This document shows, piece after piece, positions 13,943-13,961 of a stretch of 64,000 nt of DNA; position 1 is the stretch's first letter, and each line of letters begins with the position of its first letter. The stretch lies in the NCBI RefSeq assembly GCF_003334355.1, contig NZ_QOWP01000002.1. One strand, written 5' to 3'. A model generated the notes under the pieces. That model worked only from the letters and a program-made list of their open reading frames with translations. It was not told where the DNA came from and did not search any database. Origin of the DNA: Escherichia coli. Lineage in GTDB: Bacteria > Pseudomonadota > Gammaproteobacteria > Enterobacterales > Enterobacteriaceae. Made by a program: the position numbers and the translations under genes.

Positions 13943-13961
13943 AACGATAATAATTATCAAT
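13943..13961. promoter_or_regulatory. Fur box upstream of cirA
   Basis: cgataataattatcaatcc contains the gataat-aattatc palindrome typical of Fur sites, about 180 bp upstream of the cirA start. Confidence 0.7.

Follow-up and report, generated by a model that had tools for sequence, protein, structure and literature searches.

The 19 bp at 13943–13961 of the window are, with a probability of about 96%, the Fur operator of Escherichia coli cirA, which acts through classical Fur repression. The window is the whole stretch of DNA that was analysed, 64,000 nucleotides of the E. coli chromosome. The 601 bases around the site match all 5426 complete E. coli genomes at an identity of at least 95%, and the features annotated under this match are cirA and lysP. 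The interval proposed as a Fur box in the original prediction coincides exactly with a 19-bp Fur site centred on 13952. This analysis establishes the sequence of the site, how it scores on a Fur matrix, where it lies with respect to promoter-like hexamers and how far it is conserved. The cirA Fur operator is well known from experimental work that dates back to the late 1980s. The locus is a textbook case of iron uptake, in which the gene call and the regulatory logic were confirmed and nothing new is added to Fur biology.

The Fur site upstream of cirA

The gene and the Fur sites lie as follows.

11772–13763, minus strand: cirA coding sequence, 663 aa (open reading frame list, NCBIfam NF007478, RefSeq annotation of matching genomes)
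13943–13961, no strand: main Fur site, 19 bp in the 9-1-9 arrangement, centre 13952, with a perfect 6-1-6 palindrome, GATAAT-A-ATTATC, at 13946–13958
13937–13967, no strand: Fur site cluster, composed of the main site and weaker overlapping sites at a 6-bp offset, 13946 (10.5 bits) and 13958 (4.2 bits)

The cirA call was sound. The CirA protein scored 1456.4 bits on the NCBIfam NF007478 CirA equivalog against a cut-off of 745, with residues 1–663 of 663 covered, and a Fur-type operator is found upstream of the gene. The cirA-lysP intergenic region (293 bp, 13764–14056) contains the site, and its G+C content of 42.7%, compared with about 51% for the window, agrees with the AT-rich setting that had been described. 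The centre of the site is located 189 nt upstream of the ATG of cirA, which is encoded on the minus strand. The 19-mer at 13943–13961 is AACGATAATAATTATCAAT. Its inner palindrome, GATAATAATTATC at 13946–13958, has a single exact occurrence in the 64,000 nt. When up to one mismatch was allowed, three matches appeared in the window, two of which are the same palindrome read once on each strand. The expected number of one-mismatch matches was 0.07, and three were reached in none of 100 shuffles.

The published information-theory model of Fur had cir in its training set, and a cir-free matrix was therefore built. It was composed of 14 footprinted or gel-shifted E. coli sites located in NC_000913.3 (fhuA, fepA-fes, fepD-entS, entC, gpmA, exbB, ryhB, sodA, fecI, fecA, fhuF, nohA, fadD, and yoeA). 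The centres of these sites were taken, relative to gene starts, from Table 4 of Chen et al. 2007 (PMC2189734), and each was checked against the annotated start. The training sequences are independent, but their alignment is only partly so, as the centres come from the published model trained with cir. The resulting matrix has 19 columns, the consensus AATGATAATCATTATCATT and an information content of 20.4 bits. On the fur and tonB loci, its best match fell inside the held-out footprint in both cases.

With this matrix, the site at 13952 scored 24.9 bits and ranked first among 63,982 positions of the window. The probability of such a score per position is 2.3e-9 on the composition of the window and 1.7e-8 on that of the intergenic region. 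None of 200 simulated 64-kb windows (first-order Markov) reached 24.9 bits, and the simulated maximum was 21.9. The leave-one-out scores of the 14 validated sites ranged from 17.1 to 28.3 with a median of 22.3, and the cirA site is above 11 of the 14. A low score in a Fur matrix scan was the result named beforehand as speaking against a Fur box. Because the score is 24.9 bits at the first rank and within the range of the validated sites, the scan instead supported the prediction. Further offsets from 13952 gave negative scores (–3 and ±9 bp) or only 0.2 bits (+3 bp). The classical 19-bp consensus GATAATGATAATCATTATC discriminated poorly. Its best match, at 13940–13958, carries four mismatches, as many as a site within lysP at 14984. 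The matrix separates the cirA site far more clearly than this consensus does.

Promoters, repression and the K-12 data

In this region, the window and K-12 align without indels, so that published coordinates transfer directly. The offset to NC_000913.2 is 2231028; it follows from the cirA start together with the –189 position, and was checked against NC_000913.3. The window has the same locus, –189 position, flanking genes and promoters as the cir p1/p2 operator of E. coli K-12 (PMC2189734, PMC10164565). The cirA-lysP intergenic region is identical to that of K-12 except at 13951 (T in the window, C in K-12). The strongest cir site of Chen et al. 2007 is at NC_000913.2 2244980, with 20.7 bits, –189 from the gene start and the 14th place in the genome-wide table (PMC2189734). 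The cir cluster in Table 4 of that study consists of three walkers over 31 bp. The published –189 site and the 31-bp cluster coincide with 13952 and 13937–13967, respectively. Two experimental intervals from K-12 were also placed on the window.

13929–13971, no strand: equivalent of the Fur DNase I footprint, K-12 NC_000913.2 2244957–2244999 (Griggs & Konisky 1989, as tabulated in PMC2189734 Table 3)
13935–13967, no strand: equivalent of Fur ChIP-exo peak P67, NC_000913.2 2244963–2244995, present only under iron-replete conditions (Gao et al. 2023, PMC10164565 Dataset 2)

Binding of Fur upstream of cirA was also found by ChIP in another study, in which cirA RNA was raised by RyhB (Beauchene et al. 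2015, PMC4676285). In MG1655, deletion of fur changed cirA expression by a log2 fold change of 6.73, a derepression of about 100-fold (PMC10164565). The same source lists cirA as a core member of the Fur regulon in all nine strains studied, K-12 included, with log2 fold changes from 2.6 to 9.4. The predicted iron-regulated expression of cirA is thus in line with the ChIP-exo peak confined to iron-replete cells and with this derepression, both obtained with the K-12 allele. The footprint, the ChIP-exo occupancy, the transcription starts and the derepression in the fur mutant are from the literature and belong to the K-12 allele, which is one base different from the window. The allele of the window would be expected to behave in the same way or to bind Fur slightly more tightly.

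A second iron-replete ChIP-exo peak, P68 (NC_000913.2 2245077–2245104; Gao et al. 2023, PMC10164565), maps to 14049–14076. This is the stop codon and 3′ end of lysP, about 110 bp upstream of the main site, and the matrix gave only 0.9 bits there, centred on 14062.

The promoter scan on the cirA strand returned exactly two promoter-like sites. The published leaders of cirA are 173 nt from p1 and 160 nt from p2 (Guillier & Gottesman 2008, PMC2588501). The starts expected from the scanned hexamers lie no more than one or two bases from the published ones.

13944–13972, minus strand: promoter p1, –35 TTAACA at 13972–13967, spacer of 17 nt, –10 TATCGT at 13949–13944, start at about 13936 (scan; PMC2588501)
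13932–13960, minus strand: promoter p2, –35 TTGATA at 13960–13955 inside the Fur box, spacer of 17 nt, –10 TATCGT at 13937–13932, start at about 13923 (scan; PMC2588501)
13764–13936, minus strand: cirA 5′ untranslated leader, 173 nt from p1, with OmrA/B pairing at –10 to –19 (PMC2588501) and RyhB/Hfq control (PMC4676285)
14014–14037, minus strand: intrinsic terminator of lysP found by the scan, a stem of 10 bp with six G-C pairs and a T tract after it; the cirA control region ends here on its upstream side

The comparison with mapped cirA promoters that had been suggested came out in favour of the site: leaders of 173 and 160 nt place the starts at 13936 and 13923, and the box overlaps both promoters. 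The 19-bp box corresponds to –25 to –7 of p1 and –38 to –20 of p2, so that it covers the –10 hexamer of p1 and the –35 hexamer of p2. The footprint equivalent extends from –35 to +8 of p1 and from –48 to –6 of p2. Since the box and the footprint span both promoters, Fur would exclude RNA polymerase from p1 and p2. At the other side of the control region, lysP ends at 14057 and its terminator follows at 14037–14014. A scan of 11000–16000 against Rfam gave no match at the gathering score of any family.

The repression is proposed to work as follows. When iron is sufficient, Fe2+-Fur dimers would occupy the strong 19-bp site centred on 13952, and probably also the two weaker sites, which are offset by 6 bp on each side and lie on other faces of the helix. 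The bound Fur would cover approximately 13929–13971, including the –10 hexamer and the spacer of p1 and the –35 hexamer of p2. RNA polymerase would be kept off both promoters and cirA would not be transcribed. When iron is scarce, Fur would lose its metal and leave the DNA, and cirA would be transcribed with a leader of 160–173 nt. The leader would then come under the control of small RNAs, namely RyhB (with Hfq) and OmrA/B.

The operators of fepA-fes, entC, fhuA, fecI, and ryhB share with that of cirA the 9-1-9 motif AATGATAATnATTATCATT, overlapping sites spaced by 6 bp and a location in the core promoter. On the other hand, the cirA site is unusually far from the start codon (–189), while most other clustered operators are within 100 nt (–15 to –93) and that of fepA is at –172 (PMC2189734). 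The distance is explained by the leader, which is 160–173 nt long and has its separate control by small RNAs.

Conservation and competing explanations

The conservation of the site was determined with one genome per species. Loci were collected with a degenerate DNA pattern for a CirA peptide of 11 residues. The sample is unbiased with regard to the Fur box because the search pattern carries nothing on the promoter. The search returned 87 loci from Enterobacterales. Among the 75 cirA-type loci with usable upstream DNA, the best site within 400 nt of the start codon scored 15 bits or more in 58 loci and 20 bits or more in 44. The corresponding counts for control 400-nt windows from the same loci were 10 and 7 of 1343. 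In other Enterobacterales, the Fur sites upstream of cirA are usually located at –110 to –215 from the ATG. The other Enterobacterales, such as Salmonella, Citrobacter, Klebsiella, Kluyvera, Kosakonia, and Buttiauxella, share with the window the core ATTGATAAT..TTATC(A/G)TT. The 19-mer upstream of cirA in S. enterica subsp. arizonae is identical to that of the window, whereas most Escherichia, Kluyvera, and Klebsiella have G on the cirA strand where the window has A. In the remaining 17 of the 75 loci, no strong site was present within 400 nt. Pantoea, Erwinia, Mixta, Winslowiella, and Cedecea account for most of them, and the encoded proteins share 63–77% identity with E. coli CirA. Either this regulatory architecture of cirA is not universal or those 17 genes are not strict orthologues.

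A matrix-independent alignment by MAFFT was also made with 300 nt of upstream DNA from 32 sequences, and the identity to the window was averaged. The mean identity was 0.88 for the Fur 19-mer and 0.41 for the DNA upstream of the promoters. The –35 hexamer of p2 reached 1.00, being the same in all 31 other sequences. The translation-initiation region at 13764–13799 is also conserved across genera, with 0.71 compared with 0.41 for the rest of the leader.

Two short islands in the cirA leader, at about 13801–13816 and 13905–13913 (GATGTGAGCG and GGCTGAC), have been kept across genera, in contrast to the leader around them. They may be Hfq/RyhB elements or structural elements. At 13977–13985, most other genera have a conserved TTGACATAA holding a consensus –35 hexamer, and E. 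coli and E. albertii have GGATATAAA. The difference suggests a promoter element that diverged between Escherichia and its relatives.

It could be argued that the palindrome is a chance product of A+T-rich intergenic DNA with no regulatory role. The intergenic region contains 42.7% G+C as given above and the Fur consensus is A+T-rich as well, so that weak matches are common; several matches of 7–14 bits are indeed present elsewhere in the window. However, even at 70% A+T, the score at 13952 has a probability of 1.7e-7 per position and of 5e-5 for the whole 293-bp region. The site is moreover conserved across genera while its flanks are not, and it overlaps the published footprint and ChIP-exo peak (PMC2189734, PMC10164565). 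A chance origin is vanishingly improbable. The block could instead be conserved mainly as a core promoter, made up of the –10 of p1 and the –35 of p2, its likeness to a Fur box being secondary. The hexamer TTGATA of p2 is part of the box and does not vary among 31 aligned sequences, and both –10 hexamers, TATC(G/A)T, are conserved. The two roles are not exclusive, however, and their overlap is the mechanism of repression. The whole inverted repeat ATTGATAAT..TTATC is conserved, including positions that serve as spacer for both promoters. Furthermore, the occupancy by Fur is iron-dependent in vivo and cirA is derepressed approximately 100-fold (log2 6.73) without Fur (PMC10164565). It is extremely improbable that the promoter role comes first and the Fur box second, and a Fur operator placed on the core promoters is the preferred reading.

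The rare base at 13951

One base of the operator sets the window apart from K-12.

13951, no strand: rare single-base allele in the Fur box, T in the window and C in K-12, corresponding to A instead of G on the cirA strand

The position is directly next to the centre of the Fur box. The motif in K-12 and in 97% of complete E. coli genomes is GATAACAATTATC, and the perfect palindrome of the window is a rare allele. The 30-mer of the window at 13932–13961 was found in two of the 5426 complete E. coli genomes (PSS-12 and SCU-115) and that of K-12 in 5271, both counts being lower bounds, since a genome with a further change within the 30-mer would escape the search. PSS-12 is the nearest relative of the window, with eight mismatches and one gap in 24.8 kb. 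SCU-115 is 98.7% identical to the window over 8 kb and has 23 differences in cirA. The T allele probably arose twice or was moved by recombination, because the background of SCU-115 is divergent from that of the window. The same base is also natural in Salmonella enterica subsp. arizonae, Kosakonia, and some Kluyvera.

The rarity of the allele raises the question of a sequencing or assembly error, in which case the true sequence would be the K-12 operator. In favour of this view is the rarity itself, with the 30-mer of the window in 2 of 5426 complete genomes. Nevertheless, two independent complete assemblies also carry T, one from the nearest relative (PSS-12) and one from a divergent strain (SCU-115, 98.7%), and the Fur box is strong either way, with 22.1 bits for C or 24.9 bits for T. 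An error at 13951 is very improbable, and T is taken as a genuine base of the window.

On the cirA strand, the substitution converts GATAATTGTTATC of K-12 into GATAATTATTATC and makes the 6-1-6 inverted repeat perfect, which raises the matrix score by 2.8 bits. It also removes the TG extended –10 motif immediately ahead of the –10 hexamer of p1, which the scan flagged in K-12; the window has TA there, and no such motif was flagged. Judged from the sequence, the perfect palindrome and the loss of TG would both tend to lower cirA expression. One could speculate that the C-to-T change at 13951 acts as a natural regulatory allele and reduces CirA production through a perfectly palindromic operator and the loss of TG in p1, and that its presence in two unrelated backgrounds reflects recurrent selection. 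This is considered unlikely. If it were true, the selecting agents could be, for example, colicins Ia/Ib, Cir-dependent microcins or catechol-siderophore antibiotics that enter via CirA. Colicins Ia/Ib, several microcins and siderophore-conjugated cephalosporins such as cefiderocol gain entry through CirA. For this reason, susceptibility could be shifted by natural changes in the operator or promoter of cirA with the coding sequence unchanged, and the 13951 allele is a small possible example. When the literature on cefiderocol resistance was searched for mutations in the cirA promoter or Fur box, only coding-sequence mutations were found.

Only two bases, 13951 and 12352, separate the window from K-12 between 10399 and 17360. 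This block of about 7 kb runs from the end of folE to yeiH. Its flanks are about 1% different from K-12, with indels from about 19.8 kb onward, and the locus with its flanks looks like a recombination mosaic. The idea that the window comes from a K-12 derivative with mutations concentrated at cirA was rejected, as many differences are present outside 10399–17360 and the closest strain is PSS-12. The base at 12352 gives V471G, the sole residue difference from K-12 CirA. The 30-mer of the window around it was found in 10 of the 5426 complete genomes, with neither PSS-12 nor SCU-115 among them, and the combination of the 13951 T allele with V471G in none of the 5426 genomes of the collection.

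The matrix also returned other Fur-like matches in the window. The second-best, with 20.5 bits, is ATTGAGAATAATTATTACT at 855–873 (centre 864), upstream of preT (yeiT). It corresponds to the 19.6-bit prediction at yeiT –163 of Chen et al. (PMC2189734), who list it without experimental data or reference. The match at 10760–10778 (centre 10769; AGCGATAATTATTGTAATT) scored 12.3 bits and is located between the divergent genes folE and yeiG; it was met in no publication consulted. A single table row of PMC10164565 gives folE as unchanged in the fur deletion (log2 fold change 0.10). The match at 22953–22971 (centre 22962) lies just past the 3′ end of yeiL and scored 14.4 bits. After a shift by a 52-bp indel, it corresponds to the predicted 17.6-bit site overlapping the stop codon of yeiL (Chen et al., PMC2189734).
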